From positions 3,659 through 67,658 of the forward strand of contig WARW01000002.1 in the NCBI GenBank assembly GCA_013387215.1: a stretch of DNA of 64,000 nucleotides, in the 5' to 3' direction. Below are positions 3,420 to 36,996 of the stretch, piece after piece. This DNA is from Patescibacteria group bacterium (lineage in GTDB: Bacteria; Patescibacteriota; Microgenomatia; UBA12405). Position 1 is the stretch's first letter, and each line of letters starts with the position of its first letter. The position numbers and the translations under genes are program-made. The notes under the pieces are model-generated. The model searched no databases and was not told the DNA's origin. It worked only from the letters and a program-made list of their open reading frames with translations.

Positions 3420-3547
3420 AAGTATCTATATTATATAAAATTGTATAAAATTTTACAAATAAGCGATAGCTTGAACCAAAATAAAATTTACCTATTTATA
3501 GGAAGAAGATGAAGAAGATTTTTAGAAATAGTTTTAATATTTGAATT

Positions 3548-3623
3548 TGGAGCCTGAAGTCAGACTCGGACTGACGACCTGCTGTTTACAAAACAGCTGC
3601 TCTACCAACTGAGCTATTCAGGC
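3548..3623 (-). tRNA. tRNA-Thr (anticodon TGT)
   Basis: RC: GCCTGAA acceptor, GCTCAGTTGGTAGAGC D-arm, anticodon stem GCTGT/ACAGC with loop TTTGTAA, encoded CCA. The T-loop TCCGAGT is slightly non-canonical. Confidence 0.8.
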
Positions 3624-3714
3624 AAATGATTGACGAGTGTTAAACTTACGTCGAATAATGGTTATTATATCAAGAGTTTCTAAGTTTAATAATTAAGGTA
3701 AAATACTAAGTAAT

Positions 3715-4854
3715 ATGACAGCAAAGAAAAAAATCTTGGTTCTGACAGATCATATGCCTTGGGGACATAGATCCATAGCTAAGGCAATTTACAATTATCT
3801 TAAAGCAAACGAAAAAGATAACAACTATGAAGTAGTTTATGCAGAAGTGGAAGCAAAGACGGGAATTGCAGGAGACATGTATACTTTTGCCTATCGATAT
3901 TTACCAACTTCCAATCGGCTTTTCCATAAATTTTTTAATAATAAGACAGCCAGAGAACTGTTTGAAGAAGTGTCTATTTTGAATTTGCCAAGGCTTAAAA
4001 AGGAAGTAGAACGAATAAAACCTGATTTGATAATTTCGGCTTATTTTTTTCACACTCATTCATTGGCCAAATGGAGAATTAAACATCACAAGCATTTCAA
4101 ATTGTGGAATATTGTGGCTGACCCATGGACTATTAATCCGGTTACTTTTGTCAAGGATGCCGATTTGCATTTGGTATATGACGATGTGACTATGGAAGTG
4201 GCCAAAAATTATGACATTCCAGAAAGTAAGATTATGAAAACTGGATGGTGGGTAAGACCGGAGATGTATGCTAAATATGATCGAAAAAAAGCCCGGGAAA
4301 AATTAGGATTTTGTGATGACAGGCCAGTTATTTTTATCGGCGGAGGCAGTTTGGGAACCAATTCGTTGACTCGAATACTGCCAACTTTAATGCTTTTGAA
4401 ACACAAAGTTGGATTTATTATTAATACCGGAACAGACAAACTTGCTTATAATTTAGTGGAAGAATACACTAAATTATTTAAAAAATTAAGAAAAAGCAAT
4501 GTAGTGATGATTAAAAATTTTGGCTGGATTGATAATATGGCAGAAGTGCTGGCAGCCAGTGATATGGTTTTTGGAAAGGCCGGGCCAAACTTCCTTTTTG
4601 ATGTGATGGCAACTGAAAAACCATTTGTGGCCATTACCCATATTGGCGGACAAGAAGACGGCAATATCGATTTGATCCGTAAAAAAAGATTAGGATGGAT
4701 TAGAGAAAAGAATGGTGAAATTTCCAAATTTTTACTTAAATACTTGGATAATCCAGCTGAGTATCAATGTAAATTTTTGAACAATATCAAAAAAGAGGCG
4801 GAAACAAATCAAAAAAGTTTGCCAATGATTTTGGAAGCAGTCAAGAAAATATAA
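3715..4854 (+). CDS. GT28-family diacylglycerol glycosyltransferase (MGDG-synthase/UgtP-like)
   Basis: 379 aa. The N-terminus KKKILVLTDHMPWGHRSIAKAIY aligns to UgtP KRVLILTANYGNGHVQVAKTLY. PDLIISAYFFH matches PDIIINTFPM. The C-terminal GKAGPNFLFDVMATEKPFV matches TKPGGITLTEATAIGVPVI. Confidence 0.6.
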   Translation: MTAKKKILVLTDHMPWGHRSIAKAIYNYLKANEKDNNYEVVYAEVEAKTGIAGDMYTFAYRYLPTSNRLFHKFFNNKTARELFEEVSILNLPRLKKEVERIKPDLIISAYFFHTHSLAKWRIKHHKHFKLWNIVADPWTINPVTFVKDADLHLVYDDVTMEVAKNYDIPESKIMKTGWWVRPEMYAKYDRKKAREKLGFCDDRPVIFIGGGSLGTNSLTRILPTLMLLKHKVGFIINTGTDKLAYNLVEEYTKLFKKLRKSNVVMIKNFGWIDNMAEVLAASDMVFGKAGPNFLFDVMATEKPFVAITHIGGQEDGNIDLIRKKRLGWIREKNGEISKFLLKYLDNPAEYQCKFLNNIKKEAETNQKSLPMILEAVKKI

Positions 4855-16720: not shown

Positions 16721-18967
16721 TTATCCTTGAGTTTTTTCTGGTTCTGGCGGTGCCGGCGGAGTGGAATTTTCTGAAGGTGATGGATAAAAATTTTGTTTTC
16801 TTTTGCCCCATCTTTCTTGAGAGATGTGAACCAATTTAGATCGTTGTTGATTTTTGCAAGCCAAAGGAGGCAGAGTGGCAGCATAGAATGGTTGAGTGGT
16901 TTCGGAATCAATAGAGAGTTTGCAGACGATTTGGTATTTACCAATTTTAATTAAATCTTCAGGAGGGAATTGGGGTCCGAATTCTTTAGCTAAAATAAAG
17001 GCATCTTGGTTGCCGACAACGAAAGACATAATGGAACCAACGTTGCCCAAAATAGCGTCTTGAATAGTGCGGTCAAGCTGGGACATGTATTGGTTGGCAA
17101 CAATCAAGTTAAGTTTGAATTTGCGGGCTTCAGAAAGAATTTTAATGAAGGCATCAGTGGCAAAGTTTTGGAATTCGTCAACGTATAAATAAAAATCAGA
17201 ACGGTCTTCGGCTGCCTGGAAAACCCGGTTCATAGCCGATAACTGGATTTGTGTAATCAACATAGCACCAAGCAAAGCAGAATTATCTTCACCAAGCCTT
17301 CCAGTGGAAAGATCAGCAATAAGAATTTTTTTCTGATCCATGATTTCCTGGATATTAATTTTAGATTTAGCATGAGCCACTGTGTTTCTGATATTGGTAG
17401 AGGAAATGAATTGACCAACTTTGTTTAAGATTGGGGAAACAGATTCGTTTTGAAATTTTGGATCCATTCTGGCAAACTCATTAAACCAGAAATTTCTTAA
17501 GGTTTGATTTTGAAGCTGGCTGACAACTTTTTCCCGATAATTTTTGTTGGTTAATATTTCCACGATATGGGTTAAGTCAGAGTTGGGAGTATTAACTAAA
17601 GTTAAAACTGTATTTCGTAAAATGTGTTCAAGCCGTGGACCCCAAGAAATATTGCCGTAAAGTTTTTTGAAAATAGAAATAACACCAGAAGCAATTAATT
17701 CTTTTTGAGATTCATTTTTAGCTTCCAAAACGTTTAAAGGATAAACATAATCAGGATCGGCAGGGTTGAAATAGCAGCAGTCATTAATACGATTGGAAGG
17801 AACATAATCAAGAATAGTATTGCATAAATCGCCGTGGGGATCGATAACAGCCACACCACGGCCTTTTCTAATATCATCAATCGCCATGTTGGCGATTAAA
17901 GTGGTTTTACCAGTACCGGATTTACCGATAATGTATGTGTGGCGGCGGCGATCTTCGCCTTCTTTAATACCAAAAATACAGTCTTTGTTGCGGTATTCAG
18001 TTTTAGCAAAAAAAGTAATTTTATTTTTTTCTTCAGGTGTTAAATTATCAGCAACTGGAAGATTTTCTGGCGGATCGGCATAAAGTTTTTTACCCCAAGC
18101 AATGTTTGGGAGTTTGGTCATTTGACCTGGAAAGTGCCAAACAGCAGAGAGTTCTTCAGTATTAAAGATTTGACCTTTGAGACTGGTATCGAAATTACGA
18201 TTAAGAATAGCTTTGAGAAGTTTTTTTCTTTTTAAAAATCCTGGAGTAAAAGATTTGATAAAATTGCCTCGAGGGTTGGTGTAGGCACCAAAAGAAGAGG
18301 AAACAGAAGCAATTAAACCTGGATTGTTGCTTAAAAGATTGGCTTGAGTGTAAAGACCGGGGAATTGAATTTTTTGTTCAAAAATGGCTTTGTCGGGATG
18401 AGCAGTACGAATATTTCTTTCCTTATCAACCAAAATTCCATTTTGAATAGTGCTGATAATTGAGCTTTGCCAATTTTTGGGAGCACCGCTTAGAAGAATT
18501 TGAAATAAGAAAAAGTCATTGGAATTGTTAGATCGAGAAAGGGGAGCTAGAACAGAAACCATTGGGTCGGTATCTTTAAAATCTTTGGCAGTTTTAATTG
18601 GGTAAGTATATGAACGAGCCAGACCAAGCTGAGTGAAAGAAATAGTGTTAAGTTTCTCGTCTGAGGCATGTTCAAGTAAATAATCTTTAGTGTCTTTGAG
18701 AACGGCAGTAGGGTATTGAGCGAGAATTTGGGAATGTAAAAATTCACGATTATCAGAAAGTGCAGCAATATAGAAATGTATTTGACCATTTAAAAGAACA
18801 ATTTCCAAGGAAACAATGGTCTTTTTTTTGCCAGCTAGTTTTTCCCAGAATGACAAATTGGAAATTTGGGTGAAATTAGACAGGAGGGCGGACATGGATT
18901 CAAAAGTATATTCATTAGTCTGAGGTAAACGGATTTCAAATATAGATAATTTTGCAGCGTCGGCCAT
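16721..18967 (-). CDS. soluble AAA-like ATPase of the TraG/TraD/VirD4 - HerA/FtsK superfamily (type IV coupling-protein-like, DUF87-like)
   Basis: 748 aa. Walker A IIGKSGTGKTT followed by VIDPHGD (characteristic of TrwB/VirD4/TraG-type and DUF87 ATPases). Walker B LYVDEFQNF. No N-terminal TM helices. About 330-aa N-terminal domain of unknown function. Confidence 0.55.
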   Translation of the reverse strand: MADAAKLSIFEIRLPQTNEYTFESMSALLSNFTQISNLSFWEKLAGKKKTIVSLEIVLLNGQIHFYIAALSDNREFLHSQILAQYPTAVLKDTKDYLLEHASDEKLNTISFTQLGLARSYTYPIKTAKDFKDTDPMVSVLAPLSRSNNSNDFFLFQILLSGAPKNWQSSIISTIQNGILVDKERNIRTAHPDKAIFEQKIQFPGLYTQANLLSNNPGLIASVSSSFGAYTNPRGNFIKSFTPGFLKRKKLLKAILNRNFDTSLKGQIFNTEELSAVWHFPGQMTKLPNIAWGKKLYADPPENLPVADNLTPEEKNKITFFAKTEYRNKDCIFGIKEGEDRRRHTYIIGKSGTGKTTLIANMAIDDIRKGRGVAVIDPHGDLCNTILDYVPSNRINDCCYFNPADPDYVYPLNVLEAKNESQKELIASGVISIFKKLYGNISWGPRLEHILRNTVLTLVNTPNSDLTHIVEILTNKNYREKVVSQLQNQTLRNFWFNEFARMDPKFQNESVSPILNKVGQFISSTNIRNTVAHAKSKINIQEIMDQKKILIADLSTGRLGEDNSALLGAMLITQIQLSAMNRVFQAAEDRSDFYLYVDEFQNFATDAFIKILSEARKFKLNLIVANQYMSQLDRTIQDAILGNVGSIMSFVVGNQDAFILAKEFGPQFPPEDLIKIGKYQIVCKLSIDSETTQPFYAATLPPLACKNQQRSKLVHISQERWGKRKQNFYPSPSENSTPPAPPEPEKTQG

Positions 18968-22439: not shown

Positions 22440-23528
22440 TTGAATCTTTTAAAAGCCCTTCGGATAAAACCGAGGGGCTTTTTAGTTGCGGTATACTTTA
22501 TTCTAATGGATTTTTCAGCGTTTCAAAAAATTTTAATTAGAAATATTTTGAAAAAATATTTAGAAAACAAAGCCCGAATTAAGGGTGAAGTTTTTCGATG
22601 TAATGCATTGGAAGGAGAGTCGGCTTATGATATTTCTATAAATTCGGACATGACAGTGTCGTGTAATGCCCAAGATTATAATGGCAGCGGCCATATTGGC
22701 GATTTGAATAAAAGCAGTTTGAAGGAAATATTTGAAGGCAAAATAGTAAATGATTTTAGAAAGAAACTAGATGAAGGAAAACTGCCATTGATTATTTGTG
22801 CCAGATGCCCGGAACTTGTATCAGCTAAAAAAAATAAGATAAAAAATAAAAAAAATACGGTGCCAAGTGAAGGCATAATGATAGAAAATACGGTTGCCTG
22901 CGATATGATGTGCAAGTCTTGCGAAAGAGAAACGCTTTTGGGCTGCAGAAAAAAAATCAGCTTGAGTTTGAATGACTTGGAAAAGATTGCTAAAGAGGTT
23001 TTAGAAAATAAAATTAAATCGGTTTGTTTTTTTAATTTAGGGGAACCTTTTTTATCAAAAAATATTTATCAAGAGCTAGAGATTCTAAAAAAACATAATA
23101 AAAAGCTTCATATTATTGTGTCGACTAATGGATTGCATTTAGATACTGATGAAAAAAGAAAGGCAATAAAATATATAAATCATATCGCTTTTTCAATTGA
23201 TGGAGTGAATAATAAAATTCTAAGAAAATACCAAACCAACGGCAATTTTGAAACATCGTATGGAAACATGAAAGCTTTGGTTGATTACCGAAATAAAAAT
23301 AATTTAGGCGGGGTAATTGAATGGAAATATGTTTTATTTAATTGGAATGATAAAAAAGTCTATATCGATCAGGCAATAAAACTAGCTAAGGAAGCAGGGG
23401 TAAATAAGATTACTTTTTGGCCAACAGGGAATCCTTTGTGGGGAATTTCCTGGCGCTATTATGTTAAGAGTTATTTTAAAAAGTTTGGGTTAAAAAACAG
23501 CAAGGGTGTAATTGAAGTGAATTTATAG
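22440..23528 (+). CDS. radical SAM domain protein with an N-terminal Cys-rich region (unknown substrate)
   Basis: CDMMCKSC = CxxxCxxC radical-SAM cluster motif. GEPFL (GGEP-like SAM-binding motif). IIVSTNG. Extra N-terminal cysteines (C..C...CxxC). Occupies the position normally held by pyrH between tsf and frr. The start may be an internal Met. Confidence 0.55.
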   Translation: MNLLKALRIKPRGFLVAVYFILMDFSAFQKILIRNILKKYLENKARIKGEVFRCNALEGESAYDISINSDMTVSCNAQDYNGSGHIGDLNKSSLKEIFEGKIVNDFRKKLDEGKLPLIICARCPELVSAKKNKIKNKKNTVPSEGIMIENTVACDMMCKSCERETLLGCRKKISLSLNDLEKIAKEVLENKIKSVCFFNLGEPFLSKNIYQELEILKKHNKKLHIIVSTNGLHLDTDEKRKAIKYINHIAFSIDGVNNKILRKYQTNGNFETSYGNMKALVDYRNKNNLGGVIEWKYVLFNWNDKKVYIDQAIKLAKEAGVNKITFWPTGNPLWGISWRYYVKSYFKKFGLKNSKGVIEVNL

Positions 23529-25245: not shown

Positions 25246-25260
25246 TTTTAAAAATTTAAA

Positions 25261-25296
25261 TCTCTCTTTATATATAAAATAAAGAGGGATTTTTTT
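25261..25296 (+). terminator. rho-independent terminator after rseP
   Basis: 10-bp stem tctctcttta/taaagaggga (one G-U pair), loop tatataaaa, then T7. Confidence 0.6.
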
Positions 25297-25373
25297 GTGT
25301 ATACAATTTATAAAATTATACATTTGATACATTGACCGCAGTTTCCTAAAATGTTTTACTTTTTTATTAAATA

Positions 25374-27953
25374 TTGGTCGAATATTTGAGGAAAATGTCA
25401 AAATTTAGTTTATCTTTAGGTAAAAAGTTAGTATATAAATTGTATAAAAAGAGAGATGGATTGGTCCAAATCCCTTTAATAATTGGATTAGTGGTAATGG
25501 CTGTGGCTTTGCCGTTAGTAACAAAATTGACTCAACAGAACACTGAAAATAGAAGTAAAGCGTATGATGGATGTTCCGGTGCACCGCAACAAGCTTGTCA
25601 GTATATGAGTAACTGCACATGGAATGGAAGTAGTTGCACTTCCATAAAAACTTGTGCTTCTTGCAATGGAAATACGAGGTGTAGTGGAGATGTGGTTACT
25701 GTTTGTAATTGTGATGGTAATTGGGTTGGTAATACTCCCTGTGCCAGCGGTACTCATTGTGATAGTTCAGGTACTCATTGTGTAGCCTCAGCTCCAGCAG
25801 CAACTGCAACCCCAAGGCCTAGTGATTGCCGTACTTCAGGATGTCCATCAGGACAGACTTGTACAAGTGATGTCGGAATTTGGGACTGTGTTCCTAATCC
25901 AACTGCAACACCAAGACCTGCAAGCACTGGTGATTGTAGGACAAGCGGTTGTGCTAGGGGAACATGTACAAATATAAATTATATGGCTGGCCGAGAAGGA
26001 TCTCCGGCTGTTTATGTTTGCGTTACACCAACTCCCGTTCCTCCAACAGCAACTCCAAGACCTTATAATTGTCCTTCTAGGTGTAGTAGCAATAAAGGTT
26101 GTGCTACTGTAACTTATCAAAGTACTGATTCTGCCTGTAATAACGTTATTAGTGGAACACAAAACTACACTCCAAATTGTTCCTGCGGTCCTGTCTCTGG
26201 TGGTGATAATTCTATTTGTCAGCAAACCGGTTGTAAAAAACCAAATGGTGAGTCGTGTTCAACAGGTTCTGATTGTGCAAGTGCCATATGTTTTTCTGGT
26301 AAGTGTTCAGCTGCTGATTGTAGCGGTGGTTATGGAAACAAGCCTAATTCTTGCTCTTGTACTTATAGTTTCGAATGTGATTCAGGTAATTGTGTTAGCG
26401 GAAAATGTGTTGCTTCTGGTTCTTCAAATCCAACTTCAATACCAACTCAAGCTACCCAACACTATACGGTTTATAAAAATGGTTCTTGCCAGACTTCAGC
26501 TAATGCATATGTCAGTTTGACAGCATGTAATAATGATCCGCCAGTAAATAATTGTTACTCAAGCATGGCGGCTTGTAATAGTGCACATCCAGCAACTCCA
26601 ACCCAACACTATACGGTTTATAAAAATGGTTCATGCCAAACTTCTATAAATGAATACACAAGTTTGACAGCATGTAATAATGATCCGCCAGTAAATAATT
26701 GTTACTCAAGCATGGCGGCTTGTAATAGTGCACATCCAGTTGCTTCAGTACCAACATATACATGTGAAACAAACGGCGATCATTGTTATACCACCCAAGT
26801 TAATGGAAGCATTCCAACTTCCTGTTTAACCTACACTAATACATATAAACAATTGTATGGAAGCGGTTCTGGTACTTGTGCTAGTGGACTTTGCTGTAAG
26901 ACACCTGTTGCTTGTACATGTTCAAGCGGCTACTCAACTTCAGTAACTAGCTGTCCATCAGGATCCACTTTAGATACGACAAATTCTCTAAGTTGTGGAT
27001 CTGGAGTTAAATGCGGTAAGTGTATCACTGCAACTTCTACTACTGATCCTGAATGTGTTGGTCATGCTAACAGCACAGGATTTTGTTCAGGAACAACTTA
27101 TTTAAGATGCGAAGCAGGAAAAGTAGCTTACACTTTGGCTAATGCTGCAGCTTGTCCAGTAACTCCAACTGATGCTTGTAATAATTATGGAAGCAGTATT
27201 CCAACTTGTATGAGCCAGTCCAATTGTACTTGGAATGGAACTGCCTGTGTAACTAAGCCAGTGTGCGACAAACTATGCGGCAGCAATAAATATGGCGACA
27301 TTGTTTGTAGTGGAAATGCAGTTAAGATTTGTCAATGTGATGGAACTTGGAGCAGCACAGTTCCATGTGCCAGCGGATTAGTTTGTGACAGTACGGCAAC
27401 TAAATGTGTAGCTCCGGCAACTGCTGACCCTGGTATCACTTTTTCTAATTTTAATGTAGTGGCTAATAGTTCAACATCCGTGAGAGTGACTGGCAGTATG
27501 ACAGCAACAAATGGCGGATTATTACAAATGTATTGGTTTAAAGTAGACGGTAATGACATTCAAAAGTTAACTTTGCAAAACCCTGATGGAAATGGCGGTT
27601 TTGTGGGAAGAACTTCATATGATTTCACCAATATTTCCGTAAATAATTTAAGTACTGGAAATCATAATGTTGCAGTTTGTGGAACTGTAAAATCTACTGA
27701 TGGCAGTAAGGAAGTGAATGCTTGTACTGATGTAAAAGCTGTAAGTTTAGTAAATCCTCCAACTGCAGCACCAGGAAGATGCGATGTTTGTTCAACATTT
27801 GCTACATCAAGAAATAATGGAGATTTTGATTGTAATGGAACTTCGAACTTAACAGACTTCTCAGTATGGAAAGATCTGTATTTTAATTGTTCAGGAGTAG
27901 TTTCAACTAATGATTTTTCCATATGGAAGGAAAAATATCTTATTAATAAATAA
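25374..27953 (+). CDS. large Cys-rich modular secreted/surface protein with PT-rich linkers, internal tandem repeats, a C-terminal beta-sandwich-like domain and a dockerin-like tail
   Basis: 859 aa. N-terminal TM/signal segment (IPLIIGLVVMAVALPLV). Two ~65-aa Cys-rich modules (CxYMSNCTWNGSxCT...C.CDG.W....PCASG..CDS....CVA) near the N- and C-terminus. PTATPRP linkers. 2 x 49-aa tandem repeat. C-terminal GDFDCNGTSNLTDFSVWK ... DFSIWK resembles paired dockerin Ca-binding loops and helices. Confidence 0.55.
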   Translation: MVEYLRKMSKFSLSLGKKLVYKLYKKRDGLVQIPLIIGLVVMAVALPLVTKLTQQNTENRSKAYDGCSGAPQQACQYMSNCTWNGSSCTSIKTCASCNGNTRCSGDVVTVCNCDGNWVGNTPCASGTHCDSSGTHCVASAPAATATPRPSDCRTSGCPSGQTCTSDVGIWDCVPNPTATPRPASTGDCRTSGCARGTCTNINYMAGREGSPAVYVCVTPTPVPPTATPRPYNCPSRCSSNKGCATVTYQSTDSACNNVISGTQNYTPNCSCGPVSGGDNSICQQTGCKKPNGESCSTGSDCASAICFSGKCSAADCSGGYGNKPNSCSCTYSFECDSGNCVSGKCVASGSSNPTSIPTQATQHYTVYKNGSCQTSANAYVSLTACNNDPPVNNCYSSMAACNSAHPATPTQHYTVYKNGSCQTSINEYTSLTACNNDPPVNNCYSSMAACNSAHPVASVPTYTCETNGDHCYTTQVNGSIPTSCLTYTNTYKQLYGSGSGTCASGLCCKTPVACTCSSGYSTSVTSCPSGSTLDTTNSLSCGSGVKCGKCITATSTTDPECVGHANSTGFCSGTTYLRCEAGKVAYTLANAAACPVTPTDACNNYGSSIPTCMSQSNCTWNGTACVTKPVCDKLCGSNKYGDIVCSGNAVKICQCDGTWSSTVPCASGLVCDSTATKCVAPATADPGITFSNFNVVANSSTSVRVTGSMTATNGGLLQMYWFKVDGNDIQKLTLQNPDGNGGFVGRTSYDFTNISVNNLSTGNHNVAVCGTVKSTDGSKEVNACTDVKAVSLVNPPTAAPGRCDVCSTFATSRNNGDFDCNGTSNLTDFSVWKDLYFNCSGVVSTNDFSIWKEKYLINK
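26457..26750 (+). repeat. 2 x 147-bp tandem DNA repeat inside the CDS (encodes QHYTVYKNGSCQTS...MAACNSAHP modules)
   Basis: Copy 1 starts ~26457, copy 2 at 26604. The 3' ~77 nt of each copy is identical. Confidence 0.8.
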
Positions 27954-27957
27954 TTAA

Positions 27958-29166
27958 ATGTTCAACAGCAATAACATGAAAAAAATAAATTACACCGCCG
28001 TATTCTGGGTACTGACAAGTATGGCACTAATAGGTGGTTTAGCATTGGCAAGCCAGAGCCAAGATACGAGAAGGGGAGCGGCATTTTCAGCAGGCAGGTT
28101 AATGCTTTTACCAAACGATAAAATCAGCTTTACTGTTGGTCAATCCCAAAACGTTCAATTATGGGTAAATTCAGGGAATGCATCGGCTAATGTTGATGCT
28201 ATTAGAACCAATATCTGTTTTAATAAGAACTTTCTTAATTTAAATGATCCGGTTGTGGAAAATAATATTAAACAAGATCCAGCTTTTGATACTGTGATCG
28301 CAACTTTAAAAGATGGAAACACTCAATGTTTAGATTTATCAATATTATCAGTATCTAAGAAAGCATCAAAAAATGGATTATTTAAGATTGCTGATATCAC
28401 TTTTAAGGGTGTAGGAACAGGATCTGGTCCAATTGATATTATTAAAGATAAAACTGAAATTTCAGGTGACAATGCCGGTAGTTTAGATAAAACAATTAGT
28501 ATTGATTCAGTTACCGGAACTACTTTTGAAGTTACTCCTCAAACTTCAGTAGCAGTACCAACTACACCGCCACCAGCCGGAACACCACTTTTAAGTTTTA
28601 GATTTGCTTATGCGGGCGTGAAGGCAAATGCAGAGTGTTCTATTGGAGCAAAATGGCCAGTAAAGATTATGGTTAGGGGAAATGGAAAAATTTCAAAAGC
28701 TTATACTGCAATTCCAACTTTGGATGGAACAAATTCTCGAGGAGAGGCTGTTTATAAAGTTACAAATTTGGCTTTAACTGATTTCGATCAAAAAAGTGGT
28801 TTGGCTGTTTTTTTGAAAGGACCAGAACACGCTCAGATGAAATATGGAGTTAATGCACAGGCTAGTAACTACACAAAAGCAGATGGAGAAATAACTATTA
28901 CCGCTGATGCATCTACAACTCCAATTTTGGATTTTACTAATTATCCAATAATGCCAGGTGATGTTCGAGGTTCAGCAAGCGGTGGCCAAGATGGAATAAT
29001 AAATGTAGTCGATTTTAGTTATATTAAACAAGCAGTGTCGGCCAGATCTACTGTTCCAGCTGGTGGTGGTTTGGATGCTGACTTAAACGGAGATTGTATG
29101 GCAAATACCGGCGATGTTCAGTTATTTAAAAATTCCCTTATTGAGAAGCAGGATCAATTGTATTAA
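27958..29166 (+). CDS. secreted protein with an N-terminal cohesin-like domain and a C-terminal dockerin-like module
   Basis: Signal/TM (VFWVLTSMALIGGLALA). Cohesin-like hallmarks (TVGQSQNVQLWVNS..., ...GLFKIADITFKGVGTGSGPIDII). C-terminus QDGIINVVDFSYIKQ ... DLNGDCMANTGDVQLFKN fits the D-x-N-x-D-G-x-x-N-x-x-D Ca-loop pattern twice. Confidence 0.45.
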   Translation: MFNSNNMKKINYTAVFWVLTSMALIGGLALASQSQDTRRGAAFSAGRLMLLPNDKISFTVGQSQNVQLWVNSGNASANVDAIRTNICFNKNFLNLNDPVVENNIKQDPAFDTVIATLKDGNTQCLDLSILSVSKKASKNGLFKIADITFKGVGTGSGPIDIIKDKTEISGDNAGSLDKTISIDSVTGTTFEVTPQTSVAVPTTPPPAGTPLLSFRFAYAGVKANAECSIGAKWPVKIMVRGNGKISKAYTAIPTLDGTNSRGEAVYKVTNLALTDFDQKSGLAVFLKGPEHAQMKYGVNAQASNYTKADGEITITADASTTPILDFTNYPIMPGDVRGSASGGQDGIINVVDFSYIKQAVSARSTVPAGGGLDADLNGDCMANTGDVQLFKNSLIEKQDQLY

Positions 29167-29184
29167 AAATTTTATAAGGCAATT

Positions 29185-29811
29185 ATGAAAGACAATGAAA
29201 TTTTAAAATTATTTATCCCGCTTGTTGCAGTAGTGGTAATTTTTGAAAGTGTTTTGTTAGTTTCTAAATTAACCAATAAAACTCCAAGCGTGCCGAGAAC
29301 TGTAAATAATGTAAGTGTAAATGAGGCTGGAAGTTCGGCCCAAGTTTCTGAAAATAAACCTGTGGCTCTAGATTTACTTTTCGGAACAAAAACTAAGGAA
29401 ATGAAAGTTGGTCAAAGTTATGCAGTTGAAGTGGATATGCTTGGAAAAGATAATTATTCTTTTGATGGTGCAGATTTGTATGTTAAATACGATCCAAGTG
29501 CTTTTAATGTTAGTAATTTAAGTTTTGATAGCAAAATACCAAAACCAACATTTAGTAAAGTTAGCCAACAGAAGGGAATGGTAGTTGCTAATTATTTATT
29601 CCCATCTCAAAATGGTTACAGAATTGCGAAAAATGAATTTGCTTCAGTAATGAAATTTGACGTAACTCCCAAGAAGCTTGGAAATTTCGATTTTGAAATT
29701 ACTACTGGTAATCAAGACAAAGAATCTGCTACCATGTTTATAGAAAGTGTTACGAGTCAGGCTCTACCTTTCTCCAGTAATAAATTAAATGTTAATGTTT
29801 TGAATAAATGA
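29185..29811 (+). CDS. membrane-anchored cohesin-like domain protein
   Basis: N-terminal TM (LFIPLVAVVVIFESVLLV). VGQSYAVEVDMLGKDNYSFDGADLYVKYDPSAFNVSNL matches the cohesin consensus (vGdtvtVpVsl...adf.lkYDPsvLev). TGA stop overlaps the next ATG. Confidence 0.45.
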   Translation: MKDNEILKLFIPLVAVVVIFESVLLVSKLTNKTPSVPRTVNNVSVNEAGSSAQVSENKPVALDLLFGTKTKEMKVGQSYAVEVDMLGKDNYSFDGADLYVKYDPSAFNVSNLSFDSKIPKPTFSKVSQQKGMVVANYLFPSQNGYRIAKNEFASVMKFDVTPKKLGNFDFEITTGNQDKESATMFIESVTSQALPFSSNKLNVNVLNK

Positions 29812-30509
29812 GAAAGTCAAGTCTTTTTATAAGCATATTTTTTCTTGGAGCATTTTTAGTATTAGCTAAAGGCAGTAAAGCTACTTTTGCTGCTCCACAC
29901 TTAACATTAACTCCTAGTACTGGAACTTATAATGTCAATGATACTTTTACAGCAACTGTTGGAGTCGATTCAGATACTGAAGGTTCTAATGCTGTTGATG
30001 TGTGGGCAACTTTTGATGCAACAAAATTAGATGTCGTTTCAATAGTTAAAGCTGCTGTGCCAGCATTTAATTTTGATATGACTCCTCATTTTGACAATAC
30101 TACGGGTAAATTTGATTTTTCATGTTCTCCAAGCGATATGAGCAATTTGAGCATTAAACCAATAAAAGGGGATTTGGCTGTAATTACTTTTAAAGCCAAA
30201 GTGGCTGGAAATGCTCCTGTGAATTTTACTTGTCAACAAGGAGTAACAATTGATTCAAATATTTTTAATGCTACTGCTTCTGATGTAATTAGCTGTCCCG
30301 CAAACCAAAGCGGATCTTTCACGATTGGTGCTGCAACAACTACAACTGGAACAACAAATGCTCCTGCAGCAACAACAACAACAACAATTGCGGCCACAAC
30401 TGCTACATCATCTGAGTTGCCAAAAACTGGTAGTCTTAGTACTACAATTGGTTTAGCTACTTTCGGATTGGTGAGTGTTCTAGGCGCATTTCTTCTGAGA
30501 TTTCTATGA
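29808..30509 (+). CDS. cohesin-like domain protein with a C-terminal LPXTG sortase cell-wall sorting signal
   Basis: Signal peptide (LFISIFFLGAFLVLAKG). Cohesin-like core (VDVWATFDATKLDVVSIV...GDLAVITFKAKVAGNAPVNF). T-rich linker. LPKTG, then hydrophobic stretch SLSTTIGLATFGLVSVLGAFLL, then RFL tail. TGA stop overlaps the next ATG. Confidence 0.55.
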   Translation: MRKSSLFISIFFLGAFLVLAKGSKATFAAPHLTLTPSTGTYNVNDTFTATVGVDSDTEGSNAVDVWATFDATKLDVVSIVKAAVPAFNFDMTPHFDNTTGKFDFSCSPSDMSNLSIKPIKGDLAVITFKAKVAGNAPVNFTCQQGVTIDSNIFNATASDVISCPANQSGSFTIGAATTTTGTTNAPAATTTTTIAATTATSSELPKTGSLSTTIGLATFGLVSVLGAFLLRFL

Positions 30510-31273
30510 AAGGTAAGATTAATCTAAAAACTATTATTGTTTTTGTAATATTGATTTTAGTGGTGATTTTAAGTGTTTTGGGGGTGAAAACTGTTAGAAC
30601 ATATATGAGTGGAGCAACAGCAGGAATAGAGCCAAAAAATATTCAAGAAGTTTTAAGCGACGATGGAAAGAGTGCTACTATTACTTGGGTTTCTGACAAA
30701 GAGTCGATGGGTACTGTTTATTATGGAACCAATGCTGCCAGTATTCTTGTAACGTCAATTGAAAGTACTCAAACTACTAATCATGCTGTGGTTCTAAATA
30801 ATTTAAGAGCCAATACTAAGTATTATTTTAAATTAAAAATTGAAGAGTCTGATTTTGATAATAATGGTATGCCGTTTAGTTTTACTACAAAAGGTTCGAG
30901 TGATGCTAATACGGATACACCAGAAAGGATGCCTAGTCGAGTTATGAATAATCCATCTCCAGAAGTGTCTTCACCATCAGGTATGGTCTTATCTCCAACA
31001 ATTGCCTTGTCTCCTGTTTCTACAACTTCAAGCACAACATCCCCATCATCAGGTGCAGCTTCATGCAATAAATCAACTGACTATAATAATGATGGAGTTA
31101 CAAATACTATGGATTATTTATATTGTATGAAAAATGGAAGTGGCGGCAGTACAACTACAGCGGCTCCGACTGGCGCAAGTGTGGGTGTTTGCAAACACGA
31201 TGTAGATTATAATAATGATGGAATCGTAAATACTTTAGATTATATTAAGTGTTTACAAAGCAACAAAAAATAA
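30506..31273 (+). CDS. membrane-anchored protein with an FN3/purple-acid-phosphatase-N-like domain and two canonical dockerin-type Ca-binding loops
   Basis: N-terminal TM. ITWVSDKESMGTVYYGT...TKYYFKL is FN3-like. DYNNDGVTNTMDY and DYNNDGIVNTLDY match D-x-N-x-D-G-x-x-N-x-x-D exactly, each bracketed by Cys residues. Confidence 0.5.
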   Translation: MKGKINLKTIIVFVILILVVILSVLGVKTVRTYMSGATAGIEPKNIQEVLSDDGKSATITWVSDKESMGTVYYGTNAASILVTSIESTQTTNHAVVLNNLRANTKYYFKLKIEESDFDNNGMPFSFTTKGSSDANTDTPERMPSRVMNNPSPEVSSPSGMVLSPTIALSPVSTTSSTTSPSSGAASCNKSTDYNNDGVTNTMDYLYCMKNGSGGSTTTAAPTGASVGVCKHDVDYNNDGIVNTLDYIKCLQSNKK

Positions 31274-34161: not shown

Positions 34162-36996
34162 ATGGATAGAATAATGCCAGATGCTGATATTGAAAAATAT
34201 GACGGAATAGATGGCGTGGTCAAAAGCTTGGTAAAAGTTCAATCAGAAAATATTGACCTAGAATCACAGCCAACTTTGTGTGACGTTTTAAGAAGAATTT
34301 TTATTAGAGAGGGAATAAAAGATGTAGAGATAAATAATAAAAATATTGATCTTATTATTGATAAATTATCGAATTTTGATGAGTCAGTTTCTAAAAAGGA
34401 AAATGAATTGTTGAAAAAAGCAGCTAATAAAAAAGAAGAATTGGAAACAAAAACAGAGGGTTCGGTGGTTCCAGTAGCTGTAATCAGAAAATTGGTGGGG
34501 GAATATCAATTATATTTAGATAATGAAGTATCAGAAGAAGAAGCATTGAAACTAGTGGAAAAAAGGAATAAAAATGTTGTCTCTAAAAAAAATGTTGAAA
34601 CCTTAATTAAACGGCAAAGAGAGATGTATTGGGAGAATTTAAAAGCGATTCAGAATTTTAAAGCAGAAAGTGAAGGTCGACCTAAATCGGAAGATGTGAT
34701 TTTAATGAAGGCTGACGAAAAGAAAGATGAAAATGCCAGTAATCTTGAGAAAAAGATGGCGATGACTTTGGCAGAAGAGCAATTGGTGTTAGAAGAAACG
34801 ATTGAGGGTCAGATTAGTGGTGTAGAAGCAGAAGAATTGAGTCGTAAGATTTTTGAAAAAGTGGTGATTCCTGGAATCTTTAATGATAATGGAACTTTAG
34901 ACGTTAAAAAAATATTAGAGTTTGCCAAACAAACTGATGGGTTAGATATTAATTCTGAAAGACAAGAATTATTAGTGGAAACTGTAAGTAAAGTAAATAA
35001 TTCTTTAGATATAAATATTAAAATCGATCAGGAAGCTGATAGGGTGATGGAAATAGTAATGGGTACTTTTAAAAGTGATGAAACACTTGAGGAAGTTTTT
35101 GAAAAACAAGAAGAAGCAATTCGAGTTTCTGTGGTAAGAATGGTGGAAAGAACTATAGATGATAGAACCTTAAATACTAATACTGAGGTTGAAAGAACAA
35201 TAAGCGAAATAAAAAGTTTATACAAAGAAAGTACTGGTTTGGATTTAGATCCAAGTTTAGATCTTAAAATGGAAACAGCGATCAAAGGGGCAGCAGTTGA
35301 GGTGGAAAATTGGATTGGCTCTAGAGCAGAGGAAATAAATCGTTATCGAACTGAAAAATTAAGCAACACTATTTATACAAAAATTATTTATCAGAATCCG
35401 GATATCAGCCAGGCAAAAAAAACGGCAGTCAAAGAATATGGAGATTTGGTATCAAATATTTATTATTACAAATCGGAAATAGAAAGGCATAAAAATGAGG
35501 CAGTTGATAATGTATTATCAAAAGGATTTTCGCCAGAAAAAACTGCTAATGCTTACAGTGATTTGAGAGGTTTATATTCTATTTTAAAAATGAATCCCGG
35601 TGATTTTAATGGCCTTATTTATAAATATCGGCAATTAAAATTTGAGTTGAAAGGAATTGAACTGCCGTATGAAATTAAGGAATTAAAATCTTTTGAAGGT
35701 TTAATGTCTTTAGCTTCAGAAGTCCCTGAAGTAAAAAACTTAATTAATTTCACCCAAAAATATATTAAAGTTTACGATACAGTTAATGCAATATCGGGCG
35801 GGTTTTTGGAAAAATTGGGTCTTAAACAATTGGGGATGTCGGCATTAGATTCGGTTGGTGGTCAAGCGATGAGTAAATTTGTGACCAGTTCTTTGGAAGT
35901 ATTTGCTGAGCAGGGTGTAAAGAAAGGAGCATGGGCGATTTTGAAAGGAATTATAAGCGGGGGAGTTGAGGTTGGAGCTGGGGCAGCAGAAGGAGCCGCT
36001 GGGGCAGCCGCGACTGGAGGTGTGGCAGGGGCAGTGGCAGCATTTCAAGCGATTCCAGTGGTCGGACAGGTAATTTTAATTGTGGTTGTGGTTGTGGTGG
36101 CACTTATAAAAATAATTAAACCAGTAATTAAAATTGCTACTTCAGTTTTAAAAGCAATGGGAGTTGATTTTGATAAAATGAAGGCGTTTTTTCAGGAATA
36201 CTTAGGGGGATTTTTTGGGGGAATACTTAGTTGGGGGGTAAAAACAGGAATATTAATAATTAGTATTCCAGCGGCTTTGTCTATGGTTTCAATATCAGCA
36301 GTTGTCGGGCCAGTGGTGATATTTTTAATGATTGGACTTTTTGCTTATACAACTTTAAACGGAAACTTAGTGTCTTCTTTAGTGCCACCAGTAAGAATGG
36401 GCGGTGGACAAAATCAATCAACTGCACCAGGTGGTGTACTGGTTCCAGGAGAAAATAATGATTTTACAGGGGAGTGTAGCGTGGGACAATATGTTCAATT
36501 AACACGACAATGCGATCCAGCTTGGGCTAATATGAGTTTGCCCGGGGGTTGCACAATTTGTTATGCAGGGTGCGGACCAACAAGTGTATCGATGATTTTG
36601 CAACGTCAAAGTCCCGATAATACGGTCGTTAATTTATTAAAAGATCCGATATACAGCAGTGTTGATTGTAATGGGTCAGGCATGGATCAACATGAAAAAA
36701 TATTAAGAAAGTATTTGGGCGATGATGCTATAAGTTATGGTTCATCATCACTTTGTACTCCTAAAGATATTGCCAGTTGGATATGTGATGGAAAAATAGT
36801 TTTGGTAGCGGCTCAGTTTTTTAATTCTAAAGGCACTGGCGGTCATTTTGTTTTAGGGGTGGCGGTTGATGGGGGACAGATAGTAACGGCTGATCCATAT
36901 TATGGAACTAGAAGTCCTTTTGATGGAGATACTAGCTATGGACATGTTGATTTAAGTCAAGATATTTGGTGTTTATTAGTTGATCCAAAAAAATAA
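34162..36996 (+). CDS. large membrane protein: ~620-aa acidic/coiled-coil cytoplasmic N-terminal region, Gly/Ala-rich segment, ~4 TM helices, and a C-terminal extracytoplasmic peptidase-C39-like (papain-fold) domain
   Basis: 944 aa. TM segments (VILIVVVVVVALIKIIKPVI, ILIISIPAALSMVSISAVVGPVVIFLMIGLFAY). The C-terminal domain has CYAGCGPTSVSMIL (catalytic Cys context as in Peptidase_C39_2 N.CGPTS) plus a downstream GGHFVLG..D (His/Asp). Confidence 0.5.
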   Translation: MDRIMPDADIEKYDGIDGVVKSLVKVQSENIDLESQPTLCDVLRRIFIREGIKDVEINNKNIDLIIDKLSNFDESVSKKENELLKKAANKKEELETKTEGSVVPVAVIRKLVGEYQLYLDNEVSEEEALKLVEKRNKNVVSKKNVETLIKRQREMYWENLKAIQNFKAESEGRPKSEDVILMKADEKKDENASNLEKKMAMTLAEEQLVLEETIEGQISGVEAEELSRKIFEKVVIPGIFNDNGTLDVKKILEFAKQTDGLDINSERQELLVETVSKVNNSLDINIKIDQEADRVMEIVMGTFKSDETLEEVFEKQEEAIRVSVVRMVERTIDDRTLNTNTEVERTISEIKSLYKESTGLDLDPSLDLKMETAIKGAAVEVENWIGSRAEEINRYRTEKLSNTIYTKIIYQNPDISQAKKTAVKEYGDLVSNIYYYKSEIERHKNEAVDNVLSKGFSPEKTANAYSDLRGLYSILKMNPGDFNGLIYKYRQLKFELKGIELPYEIKELKSFEGLMSLASEVPEVKNLINFTQKYIKVYDTVNAISGGFLEKLGLKQLGMSALDSVGGQAMSKFVTSSLEVFAEQGVKKGAWAILKGIISGGVEVGAGAAEGAAGAAATGGVAGAVAAFQAIPVVGQVILIVVVVVVALIKIIKPVIKIATSVLKAMGVDFDKMKAFFQEYLGGFFGGILSWGVKTGILIISIPAALSMVSISAVVGPVVIFLMIGLFAYTTLNGNLVSSLVPPVRMGGGQNQSTAPGGVLVPGENNDFTGECSVGQYVQLTRQCDPAWANMSLPGGCTICYAGCGPTSVSMILQRQSPDNTVVNLLKDPIYSSVDCNGSGMDQHEKILRKYLGDDAISYGSSSLCTPKDIASWICDGKIVLVAAQFFNSKGTGGHFVLGVAVDGGQIVTADPYYGTRSPFDGDTSYGHVDLSQDIWCLLVDPKK

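Follow-up and report, generated by a model that had tools for sequence, protein, structure and literature searches.

A five-gene operon of Candidatus Shapirobacteria probably encodes a non-enzymatic cohesin-dockerin assembly that displays a variable cysteine-rich protein

Five co-directional open reading frames, designated G1 to G5, span positions 25395-31273 on the + strand of the window (the whole 64-kb stretch of DNA that was analyzed), and all five were verified by an ORF check of the window. As the original prediction stated, they lie downstream of an rseP terminator: rseP ends at 25245 and is followed by a terminator-like hairpin at 25258-25292. The features of the locus are as follows.

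25258..25292, + strand: terminator-like hairpin between rseP and G1 (14-pair stem with 3 GC pairs, then a T-run; consensus match only)
25324..25352, + strand: promoter-like site TTGATA-17-TAAAAT upstream of G1 (10/12 consensus matches only)
25395..27953, + strand: G1, 852 aa from ATG 25395 (the listed ORF opens at TTG 25374)
25431..25568, + strand: conserved leader of G1, hydrophobic helix and QQNTENRSKA (alignment; local HMM LeadG1 E=2e-24)
27813..27944, + strand: DocG1, C-terminal dockerin of G1, GDFDCNGTSNLTDFSVW ... VSTNDFSIW (local HMM E=3e-14)
27958..29166, + strand: G2, adaptor scaffoldin with leader, cohesin, Ig-like domain, and dockerin
28075..28539, + strand: CohG2, cohesin domain, N-terminal domain of G2
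28585..28953, + strand: BetaG2, conserved beta domain directly N-terminal to the dockerin (X-module-like by position only)
28954..29163, + strand: DocG2, dockerin, ..QDGIINVVDFSYIK .. ADLNGDCMANTGDVQLFK
29185..29811, + strand: G3, membrane-anchored cohesin
29808..30509, + strand: G4, signal peptide, cohesin, Thr-rich linker, and LPKTG sorting signal
30506..31273, + strand: G5, conserved N-terminal hydrophobic segment, fn3-like domain, PT/S-rich linker, and dockerin

The promoter-like site is weak evidence because the regional count of such sites is not above that of shuffled sequence. The most likely start of G1 is ATG 25395, with a GAGGA ribosome-binding site, and the 852-aa product is identical to an NCBI protein. 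Gaps of 4 nt (G1/G2) and 18 nt (G2/G3) separate the first three genes, and ATGA overlaps are present at two junctions only, G3/G4 and G4/G5, rather than the three ATGA/TGA-ATG overlaps predicted. A single N-terminal hydrophobic segment is present in every one of these proteins, in agreement with the predicted signal peptide or N-terminal TM anchor on all five, and G4 has a further, C-terminal segment. In total, the genes encode three cohesins (the N-terminal domain of G2, G3, and G4), three dockerins (the C-termini of G1, G2, and G5), and one LPKTG motif (G4); no further cohesin or dockerin ORF was found in the 64-kb window.

These cohesin-like and dockerin-like assignments hold well beyond chance at the family level. 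Comparison to the Pfam Cohesin and Dockerin profiles bore out the prediction for most relatives, but the window's own copies fell just below the gathering thresholds, and the sole window domain above its threshold was the fn3-like domain of G5 (Pur_ac_phosph_N, E=5.3e-8, exceeding the cut-off). The window copy of G3 matched Cohesin with E=1.2e-4 (22.8 bits versus a cut-off of 24.1), as did 12 of its 20 relatives (best 6.4e-8), and for G4 the relatives matched Cohesin in 30 of 43 cases (best 1.1e-11) and Gram_pos_anchor in 20 of 43 (best 2.8e-6). Against Dockerin_1, the window DocG2 scored 19.2-19.9 bits (cut-off 22.9) and 12 of 14 relatives matched (best 4.9e-9); the DocG2 family profile also matched the solved dockerins 8x39 (1.8e-5), 2ccl_B (4.4e-5), and 1ohz_B (5.9e-5). 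Dockerin_1 was likewise matched by the DocG1 tails of 7 of 12 relatives (best 4.8e-4), while the window's own DocG1, the second repeat of which is degenerate, gave no Pfam match. Among G5 relatives, 20 of 21 matched Dockerin_1 (best 5e-8) and 20 of 21 matched Pur_ac_phosph_N.

The two anchored cohesins differ in their attachment. G3 comprises an N-terminal TM helix with an invariant Glu21, a variable stalk, and a cohesin located by alignment at 29368-29802. The cohesin of G4 (29889-30329) is followed by a sorting signal (30417-30506) with the LPKTG motif, hydrophobic stretch, and RFL that had been predicted, and the L, P, and G residues of the motif are invariant across 43 relatives. The AF2 model of G4 had a pLDDT of 83.5; 120 of its residues reach 90 or above, most of them in the cohesin core. 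Every one of the top 50 Foldseek PDB matches of this protein was a cohesin (best E=7.7e-10, TMt 0.75), with sequence identities of 10-22% to solved cohesins. We conclude that G4 combines a cohesin and an LPXTG signal.

G2 has the order cohesin, Ig-like domain, dockerin, with one cohesin here and two in some loci. BetaG2 cannot be related by sequence to any known family; its assignment as a cohesin was rejected (hhalign probability 0.3%). The best whole-model Foldseek matches of G2 (E=4.6e-8 to 1.4e-7, ~300 aligned columns) were the Coh-X-Doc fragments of Clostridium thermocellum CipA (CohI9-X-DocII bound to SdbA, 3kcp/4fl4), which have the same domain order, but the TM-scores, at 0.26-0.38, were low and the model is weak beyond the cohesin, with low confidence in the Ig-like domain (50-75 for BetaG2) and poor confidence in the dockerin. 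CipA, with nine cohesins and a CBM3, also differs from G2 in recruiting enzymes.

G5 contains an fn3-like domain (30626-30892) and an atypical, Cys-bracketed dockerin (31061-31267), and both of the predicted perfect DYNNDG(V/I)(T/V)NT(M/L)DY loops are present in this protein. The linker between the dockerin repeats is variable, and loop 1 is lost in one clade. Tails of this type matched only 49 clusters among 1.84 billion representatives, and their closest relatives outside the G5 family are multi-Dockerin_1 proteins.

The predicted character of G1 as a long, Cys-rich protein with PT linkers and repeats was confirmed: it has 80 cysteines (9.3%), a tandem repeat at residues 355-460 (44/50 residues identical), and a 60-145 module with another copy at 595-685 (37/85 identical). 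The body of G1 matched no Pfam family and ranges from 375 to 1643 aa in relatives, conservation being limited to the leader and tail; G1-type leaders are also present on G2-type and other Cys-rich proteins. From these features G1 appears to be a secreted, hypervariable, Cys-rich cargo with a dockerin tail. Neither the five proteins nor 8 G1 homologues matched any GH or CBM family, consistent with the predicted lack of glycoside hydrolases, and the dockerin-tailed proteins G1 and G5 have no catalytic domain.

The ordered five-gene block recurs in ~100 Shapirobacteria loci, mostly between rseP and rpsU, and was found in 18 GTDB species representatives and 80 metagenome loci. In loci L004-L006 it lies in the same order between rseP and rpsU-yqeY-ybeY-dnaX; L001-L003 have these same downstream genes, and the upstream context of L001 differs. 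G2 to G5 are conserved among relatives and G1 alone varies. Some loci encode further dockerin-tagged Cys-rich cargo, suggestive of a modular display platform.

Comparison of these loci also bears on which dockerin meets which cohesin. Among the loci where presence was judgeable, CohG2 and DocG1 were both present in 34 and both absent in 9, in which BetaG2-DocG2 directly follows a leader and variable Cys-rich stretch in one fused protein. In two further loci one of the copies is divergent, seen by eye in the sequence but under the local HMM threshold (the G2 N-terminus of L101, which is cohesin-like, and the G1 tail of L032, which is degenerate), and L081 has an additional CohG2-DocG1 adaptor. 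The partial Mantel correlation of DocG1 with CohG2 was r=0.69 (n=24, p=0.001), compared with ~0 for CohG3 or CohG4, noting that mirror-tree correlations can also stem from shared recombination history and that DocG1 and CohG2 are encoded within ~600 bp. DocG2 correlated with CohG4 (partial r=0.63, n=44) to a greater extent than with CohG3 (0.23), and the bootstrap CI of the difference was 0.30-0.50 even though G3 is chromosomally nearer to DocG2. The G5 dockerin gave partial r values of 0.29 with CohG3 and 0.34 with CohG4. Two independent comparative lines, co-loss/fusion and co-evolution, suggest that DocG1 pairs with CohG2, and co-evolution suggests that DocG2 pairs with CohG4.

We consider it probable that the five genes specify a cohesin-dockerin assembly that is self-contained and non-enzymatic and that displays G1 on the Candidatus Shapirobacteria (CPR/Patescibacteria, Microgenomates) cell envelope. 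All five proteins would be exported via their N-terminal signals. Sortase acting on LPKTG would join G4 covalently to peptidoglycan, whereas G3 would be kept in the membrane by its N-terminal helix and offer a second cohesin on a flexible stalk. The C-terminal dockerin of G2, preceded by the Ig-like domain as in X-Doc dyads, would bind the G4 cohesin in a presumably Ca2+-dependent manner, and the N-terminal cohesin of G2 would bind the C-terminal dockerin of G1, placing this hypervariable, disulfide-rich protein as the outermost exposed component. G5 may dock, through its dockerin, to the leftover anchor cohesin, with G3 the candidate partner by elimination. Profile, fold, synteny, and co-evolution evidence supports the layout originally proposed, namely anchor cohesin, adaptor with cohesin and dockerin, and dockerin-bearing cargo. 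Neither the window nor the flanking regions of 104 related loci contained a sortase gene; we assume that the host has one because sortase is near-ubiquitous in Microgenomates, and both sortase and disulfide machinery are enriched in CPR (PMC6744442).

Ruminococcus flavefaciens ScaE is a sortase-anchored single-cohesin protein whose X-Doc partners are ScaB and the adhesin CttA. Like G4, it consists of a single cohesin, linker, and LPXTG signal, and its cohesin (2zf9) is among the fold matches of G4; the adaptor dockerin of that system is preceded by a beta domain, as in G2. CttA offers an analogy for the cargo, being a displayed non-catalytic, dockerin-bearing surface/adhesion protein. Sortase anchoring of Ruminococcus scaffoldins has been described (PMC11557425). 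In contrast to R. flavefaciens, the present operon lacks an enzyme-integrating multi-cohesin scaffoldin, CAZymes, and CBM, belongs to a reduced-genome CPR bacterium, has an additional cohesin on an N-terminal TM helix (G3), and encodes a hypervariable Cys-rich cargo. Cohesin-dockerin use outside cellulosomes, as here, is represented by the Clostridium perfringens GH84C/GH33 toxin complex, with modules on glycoside hydrolases unlike this operon, and by the Archaeoglobus fulgidus cohesin 2xdh; neither combines, in one conserved operon of five genes, three matched pairs, two anchor kinds, and a hypervariable cargo.

If the domains did not bind each other, the "cohesins" would be generic beta-sandwich spacers and the "dockerins" Ca2+-binding, EF-hand-like stabilizing tails of independent secreted proteins, as the sub-threshold Pfam scores of the window copies and the atypical G5 tail could suggest. 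Peer et al. reportedly noted in 2009 that dockerin-like sequences are widespread without known cohesin partners. We regard this explanation as highly improbable in view of the strict 3:3 co-occurrence over ~100 loci, the joint disappearance of DocG1 and CohG2 from loci whose variable region runs directly into the G2 tail, the pair-specific co-evolution that for DocG2-CohG4 is not explained by gene distance, and predicted folds that match bona fide dockerin-binding cohesins. An LPKTG protein within a surface-protein operon could also indicate a sortase-assembled pilus or fiber of covalently polymerized LPXTG proteins; this is largely excluded by a sorting signal on only one of the five proteins, the lack of a sortase gene in the operon and regions noted above, and the lack of pilin families among the Pfam or NCBIfam matches.

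Bell et al. 2022 (ISME J, PMC9123182) reported expressed cohesin/dockerin proteins of a Shapirobacterales MAG in a groundwater metaproteome and read them as a cellulosome; cohesin or dockerin proteins made up 6 of the 12 that were detected from this MAG. In their Dataset S6, the best hit of gene KR13S7_k141_22004_39 is KKQ30199.1, identical to the L011 G2, and the neighboring _38 (cohesin) and _40 (dockerin) were detected with 39 and 10 spectral counts, respectively. The "cellulosome" proteins of Ca. Shapirobacterales S7.74, with adjacent cohesin and dockerin genes in the metaproteome, thus belong to the same gene family as this operon, but that study gave domain annotations and the cellulosome reading without operon architecture, anchors, pairing, or the lack of enzymes. 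The original view that the architecture could not be placed was only partly right, given this report and the databases that already label G2 and G4 "cohesin domain-containing protein".

A genuine (mini-)cellulosome, with cohesins recruiting dockerin-bearing carbohydrate-active enzymes encoded elsewhere to degrade polysaccharide, is unlikely. The MAG of Bell et al. (PMC9123182) does have GH/PL genes beside the expressed proteins, and our enzyme scan covered the operon proteins and 8 G1 homologues, and our search for further cohesin or dockerin ORFs the window, so that dockerin-bearing enzymes elsewhere in the genome are possible; a GH39 gene adjoins the operon of L004 on the opposite strand, but it has no dockerin. 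Against enzyme recruitment, the three dockerin-bearing proteins lack catalytic or carbohydrate-binding domains, the operon is a closed set of three cohesins and three dockerins with both putative pairings internal, the G5-type tail is confined to its 49 clusters with no GH domain in the ten longer, mostly multi-stretch matches scanned, and no scaffoldin has more than two cohesins. The same assembly might instead serve as a constitutive, structural envelope layer (an S-layer-like coat, a spacer, or a defense against phage or predators) rather than as a host adhesin, which we judge possible but rather doubtful: in most loci the operon has a fixed place amid housekeeping and translation genes, orthologues rank with the most abundant of the proteins that were detected from a Shapirobacterales MAG, and variation is confined to G1, but the extreme length and sequence variability of G1 and its Cys-rich modules are more typical of interaction/recognition proteins, and the extra cargo of some loci argues for modular display.

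The operon parts most likely form a cell-wall-anchored stalk that displays G1, and therefore not the cellulose-degrading machine of the earlier reading. Judged from sequence comparison, the function of this assembly would most likely be the display of a fast-diversifying surface protein, either an adhesin/host-recognition factor or a protective coat, rather than polysaccharide degradation.

Downstream of the end of rseP (25245), five plus-strand ORFs (G1 to G5) are present as the original prediction had described, its sole error being the number of ATGA overlaps: three were claimed and only two were found (G3/G4 and G4/G5), with gaps of 4 nt between G1 and G2 and 18 nt between G2 and G3. The features of the region are as follows.

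25258-25292, terminator-like hairpin after rseP (consensus match only)
25324-25352, promoter-like site after the hairpin (consensus match only)
25374-27953, + strand, G1, ORF of the putative cargo; probable start ATG 25395, with a GAGGA site upstream
27958-29166, + strand, G2, ORF of the putative adaptor
29185-29811, + strand, G3, ORF of a putative anchored cohesin
29808-30509, + strand, G4, ORF of a second putative anchored cohesin
30506-31273, + strand, G5, ORF of an fn3-like protein with a dockerin-like tail

The 852-aa G1 product read from ATG 25395 is exactly an NCBI protein. Each of the five products has one N-terminal hydrophobic segment, in agreement with the claim that all carry a signal peptide or anchor; that of G5 (LVGVLGVLGVNTAKTYxSGAxA) varies less than a cleaved signal peptide usually does.

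Database annotation places the G4 family in Candidatus Shapirobacteria, and a locus scan of GTDB species representatives, queried with a 9-sequence subset of a 43-sequence G4 alignment, returned 18 loci, nearly all from Shapirobacteria; a metagenome scan gave 80 further loci (related loci carry L numbers here). Local HMMs built from alignments of the operon domain families were applied across the related loci and gave a recurrent architecture of Leader-variable-DocG1, CohG2-(insert)-BetaG2-DocG2, TM-CohG3, SP-CohG4-LPXTG, and Fn3-DocG5, where Coh and Doc denote the cohesin domain and dockerin tail of each gene and BetaG2 the beta domain of G2. By these HMMs G2 to G5 were present in every locus and in constant order. 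In distant relatives too, the block is flanked by rpsB-tsf-frr-rseP on one side and rpsU-yqeY-ybeY-dnaX on the other; in one lineage it sits behind a polysaccharide gene cluster instead.

Several neighboring genes were also recorded. A TrwB/DUF87-type coupling-protein-like ATPase (DUF8128 in relatives) is encoded upstream of rpsB at 16721-18967 (− strand) and is conserved near the operon in several loci, including L005 (1-1052) and L006 (1-62). A radical SAM/SPASM-domain ORF (22440-23528) between tsf and frr is missing there in L004-L006. Downstream of dnaX lies a 944-aa ORF (34162-36996) without a Pfam family, which has a 927-aa version in L001/L002 (L001 14244-17027) and is also present in L003; L001-L003 carry the same G4 protein as the window. 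The operon contigs L007-L010, L015, L022, and L024 were deposited as "uncultured Gammaproteobacteria" or "Candidatus Methanoperedens" MAGs, labels that are probably taxonomic errors or the result of bin contamination; the flanks of L008 and L015 share the operon synteny.

The Pfam Cohesin profile (PF00963) recognized relatives of G3 and G4, and the window copies were marginal or without a match. Matches were obtained for 30 of 43 G4 relatives (best 1.1e-11) and 12 of 20 G3 relatives (best 6.4e-8), whereas the window G3 remained under the cut-off (E=1.2e-4, 22.8 bits versus 24.1) and the window G4 and the G2 N-domain gave no match. An NCBIfam scan of the operon proteins gave nothing beyond Pfam. 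Against PDB sequences, the G3 single sequence returned nothing meaningful and the G3 family profile only marginal cohesin matches (E=0.018). The expected cohesin fold was borne out by the structure model of G4, predicted from the 43-sequence alignment with a pLDDT of 83.5 (120 residues at or above 90, mostly in the cohesin core): it fits the nine-stranded beta-sandwich (jelly-roll) of solved cohesins, and in a fold search of the PDB all of the first 50 matches were cohesins (best E=7.7e-10, TMt 0.75). Because neither Pfam nor PDB sequence-profile searches identified the G2 N-domain, it was assigned by profile-profile and fold searches; it aligned with the G4 cohesin family (hhalign probability 97.8%, E=1.2e-12) and with the G3 family (profile-profile probability 93.5%).

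The dockerin tails gave a similarly divided result with Pfam Dockerin_1 (PF00404, cut-off 22.9). The relatives matched, with 12 of 14 G2 tails (best 4.9e-9), 20 of 21 G5 relatives (best 5e-8), and 7 of 12 G1 tails (best 4.8e-4), whereas the window G2 (E=1.4e-3, 19.2-19.9 bits) and G5 (E=2.6e-3, 18.4 bits) fell under threshold and the window G1 matched nothing in Pfam, Dockerin_1 included. The G2-tail profile matched the solved dockerins 1ohz_B (5.9e-5) and 2ccl_B (4.4e-5). When read directly, the tails contain the duplicated ∼22-residue segment of dockerins, a D-x-[DN]-x-[DN]-G-x-x-[DN]-x-x-D Ca2+ loop and then a helix. Of the three C-terminal loop pairs originally proposed, that of G5 is complete (DYNNDGVTNTMDY and DYNNDGIVNTLDY), whereas G2 has a canonical second loop (DLNGDCMANTGD) and an insertion in the first, and the window G1 has a canonical first loop (DFDCNGTSNLTD) and a degenerate second repeat, the second loop being intact in relatives (ADFNCDGKVxLND). 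The G5 dockerin is atypical in that each repeat is Cys-bracketed and the inter-repeat linker is long and variable; in the G5 alignment, loop 1 is deleted in one clade (L017, L019, L020, and L021). G5 also matched the fn3-like Pur_ac_phosph_N family above cut-off (E=5.3e-8), as did 20 of 21 relatives.

In G2, the dockerin is always directly preceded by BetaG2, a conserved ∼120-aa beta domain. The G2 structure was predicted from an 8-sequence alignment, since word-indexed homologue searches yielded only 4 matches with G2 as query and 4 with the profile of its C-terminus; beyond the cohesin, the model is weak. The best Foldseek matches of the whole model were the CohI9-X-DocII fragments of CipA, the Clostridium thermocellum scaffoldin (4fl4/3kcp), with low TM and with confidence of 50-75 for BetaG2 and <40 for the dockerin. 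The order of domains in these fragments is mirrored by G2 (cohesin, beta domain, dockerin). No sequence relation was found for BetaG2, which may be X-module-like, resembling the Ig-like module of X-Doc dyads that packs on the dockerin and is required for binding the anchoring cohesin. Its identity as a fourth, degenerate cohesin was ruled out (hhalign probability 0.3%).

The sortase signal proposed for G4 is present, with LPKTG at residues 204-208, a second hydrophobic segment at the C-terminus (210-233), and the tail RFL, as in LPXTG sortase substrates (PF00746/TIGR01167). All 43 G4 relatives keep the L, P, and G of LPxTG, and at least 90% keep the T; the tail has the minimum of charge, one Arg or Lys. 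Gram_pos_anchor (PF00746) was matched by 20 of the 43 relatives (best 2.8e-6), and the window copy scored under threshold (E=0.011, 16.1 bits versus 20). No TLxTC-type sortase ORF was found in the 64-kb window, nor in the sequence flanking 104 related loci. [quoted passage not shown] 2019, PMC6744442), which fits the G4 LPKTG and the Cys-rich G1 and G5. In G3, the N-terminal TM helix contains a Glu found in all 20 relatives, next to a Ser that is almost as constant (E21-S22, 29245-29250), a sequence pattern that suggests an intramembrane partner.

The description of G1 as Cys-rich, PT-linked, and repeat-containing was accurate (80 Cys, 9.3%, with PT linkers and internal repeats). The length of its body varies among relatives, from 375 to 1643 aa, and the sequences can be aligned only over the leader and dockerin; the sole Pfam match in G1 homologues was the Cys-rich DUF7107, in 2 of 8. 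A conserved export leader specific to this lineage is common to G1 and G2 (25431-25568 and 27958-28080), with the form [KR]G-[LF]AQIPLMIGLLLMAVAVPVATKLVQxNQ(D/E)TRxxA in G1 and ..LVxxNQDTRRGA in G2. The leader shows far stronger conservation than ordinary signal peptides do, matched no Pfam or NCBIfam signal, and occurs on other Cys-rich ORFs near the operon (L038 8110-9525 and 29-715; L009 1360-2106). Its assignment as a prepilin signal was rejected, there being neither Pfam/NCBIfam support nor a G|FTLIE-type motif. Proteins that carry the leader may undergo a processing or sorting step of their own. Directly downstream of G5, extra Cys-rich secreted proteins are encoded in L009 (1959-2801 and 2813-3703) and L010 (1516-2427), each ending in a single G5-type Cys-bracketed loop (C..GVDYNGDGIVNSxDxxxC), and they are further putative cargo using the G5-type tag.

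To assign partners, we tallied CohG2 and DocG1 over the loci with a complete G2-position gene and informative upstream sequence. The two domains were both present in 34 loci and both absent in 9; the apparent exceptions, L032 and L101, proved on inspection to hold divergent copies under the HMM threshold. In the 9 loci, a G1-type leader and variable Cys-rich region are fused to BetaG2-DocG2, so that a covalent joint replaces the predicted non-covalent one, which is classic fusion evidence for DocG1-CohG2. An extra adaptor with CohG2 and DocG1 between G1 and G2 of L081 (1018-2142) also fits this pairing and, if DocG1 binds CohG2, could extend the chain or polymerize. The fusion architecture is carried by L017 and L020 of the clade that lost G5 loop 1; in L019 and L021 the contig stops within the G2-position ORF, and the part that remains shows no cohesin. 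The fusion is split into two ORFs in L017 and L038, possibly through a frameshift or misassembly. Coevolution was measured by partial Mantel tests on the domain distance matrices.

Partial Mantel correlations between dockerin and cohesin domains, controlled for the non-binding Fn3 and BetaG2 domains
Pair; partial r; n; further statistics
DocG1-CohG2; 0.69; 24; p=0.001
DocG1-CohG3; -0.01; 24
DocG1-CohG4; -0.06; 24
DocG2-CohG4; 0.63; 44; p=0.001
DocG2-CohG3; 0.23; 44; bootstrap CI of difference from CohG4, 0.30-0.50
DocG5-CohG3; 0.29; 44
DocG5-CohG4; 0.34; 44

The DocG1-CohG2 correlation could arise from a shared recombination history of adjacent coding regions; for DocG2 and CohG4, which are separated by G3, this caveat falls away. 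The mirror-tree analysis assigned no partner to G5 (CohG3 versus CohG4). The predicted wiring is thus G1 to G2 to G4, via DocG1-CohG2 and DocG2-CohG4. The profiles, fold, synteny, co-loss and fusion, and coevolution support the initial interpretation of an anchor cohesin, an adaptor, and a dockerin cargo and sharpen it into this explicit scheme.

Parts of this system had already been noticed by databases and by one paper, in which cohesin and dockerin proteins of a Ca. Shapirobacterales MAG were detected in a deep-groundwater metaproteome and taken as evidence of a cellulosome (Bell et al. 2022, PMC9123182). One such protein, KR13S7_k141_22004_39, has as its best match KKQ30199.1 (PMC9123182), which is exactly G2 of locus L011. 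Its neighbors _38 (cohesin, 39 spectral counts) and _40 (dockerin, 10 counts) (PMC9123182) fit as the G3 and G1 counterparts, and 6 of the 12 proteins detected for the MAG were cohesin or dockerin proteins (PMC9123182). Detection of these orthologues indicates that the operon products are made, and abundantly. The cellulosome reading is opposed by the domain content. As originally claimed, the operon has no glycoside hydrolases: no GH, PL, CE, or CBM family was found in G1 to G5 or in 8 G1 homologues, and the 64-kb window held no further cohesin or dockerin ORFs. The G5-type tail occurred in only 49 clusters among 1.84 billion representatives, most of them G5 orthologues; ten longer, mostly multi-stretch, non-G5-like carriers were scanned; most of these were multi-Dockerin_1/FG-GAP proteins, and no GH domain was seen in any. 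The dockerin-bearing CAZymes on a scaffoldin that define a cellulosome were found in none of G1 to G5, the 8 G1 homologues, the window, or the ten scanned G5-tail carriers. Nor was there a multi-cohesin primary scaffoldin, usually bearing a CBM: proteins have one cohesin and at most two (L005, L015, L035, L047, L055, and L066), and no CBM was found. In L004, a GH39 gene (3097-4482, − strand) lies on the strand opposite to the operon between rseP and G1 and has no dockerin module. As far as G1 to G5, the window, and the scanned carriers show, the operon system lacks the features that define a cellulosome. Patescibacteria go unmentioned in a 2024 genomic survey of bacteria with cellulosomes, and our literature search found no paper on the architecture or wiring of this operon.

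The operon would instead work like a sortase-anchored scaffoldin system, the closest likenesses being ScaE, the sortase-anchored single-cohesin protein of Ruminococcus flavefaciens, with its X-Doc partners, and the non-cellulosomal cohesin-dockerin pairs. In the proposed mechanism, all five proteins would be exported, G4 would be linked to peptidoglycan by a sortase, and G3 would be held in the membrane by its N-terminal helix. BetaG2-DocG2 would dock on G4, and the cohesin of G2 would hold the dockerin of the hypervariable G1 as the exposed tip. G5, with its fn3 domain and atypical Cys-bracketed dockerin, would fill a remaining anchor cohesin, tentatively that of G3 by elimination. The extra cargo (L009 and L010), a second CohG2 (L005, L015, and others), and the extra adaptor (L081) suggest a modular display platform. 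We favor display of a diversifying recognition or adhesion protein as the function, the main rival being a constitutive protective or structural coat. A more ambitious reading, which we consider rather improbable, is a lineage-defining host-contact organelle of Shapirobacteria: a minimal three-pair cohesin-dockerin stalk whose two anchors, sortase/peptidoglycan and membrane, are independent and which displays a cassette-like, hypervariable, disulfide-rich G1 as the adhesin for host recognition. If this were true, exchange or fusion of G1 cassettes would retarget host range, and the shared NQDTRxxA leader would mark a dedicated export/processing route for cargo.

For cohesin-dockerin research, the operon provides a 3x3 specificity network that is closed and minimal by nature. 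Its unusual features are a cohesin anchored by an N-terminal TM helix and a dockerin that combines Cys-bracketed repeats with a variable linker. Since the operon proteins lack enzymes, the inference of cellulose degradation and carbon cycling drawn from Shapirobacterales cohesin and dockerin matches is corrected. The operon bears on a poorly understood matter, the way in which the CPR/Patescibacteria, which probably depend on other cells, build their surfaces and attach to partners. In the only relative amenable to genetic manipulation, a saccharibacterium, a dockerin-domain envelope protein was found to be essential (Wang et al. 2023, PMC10633639). The operon is conserved and highly expressed, and its products are candidates for a modular machine of surface display throughout one CPR order.
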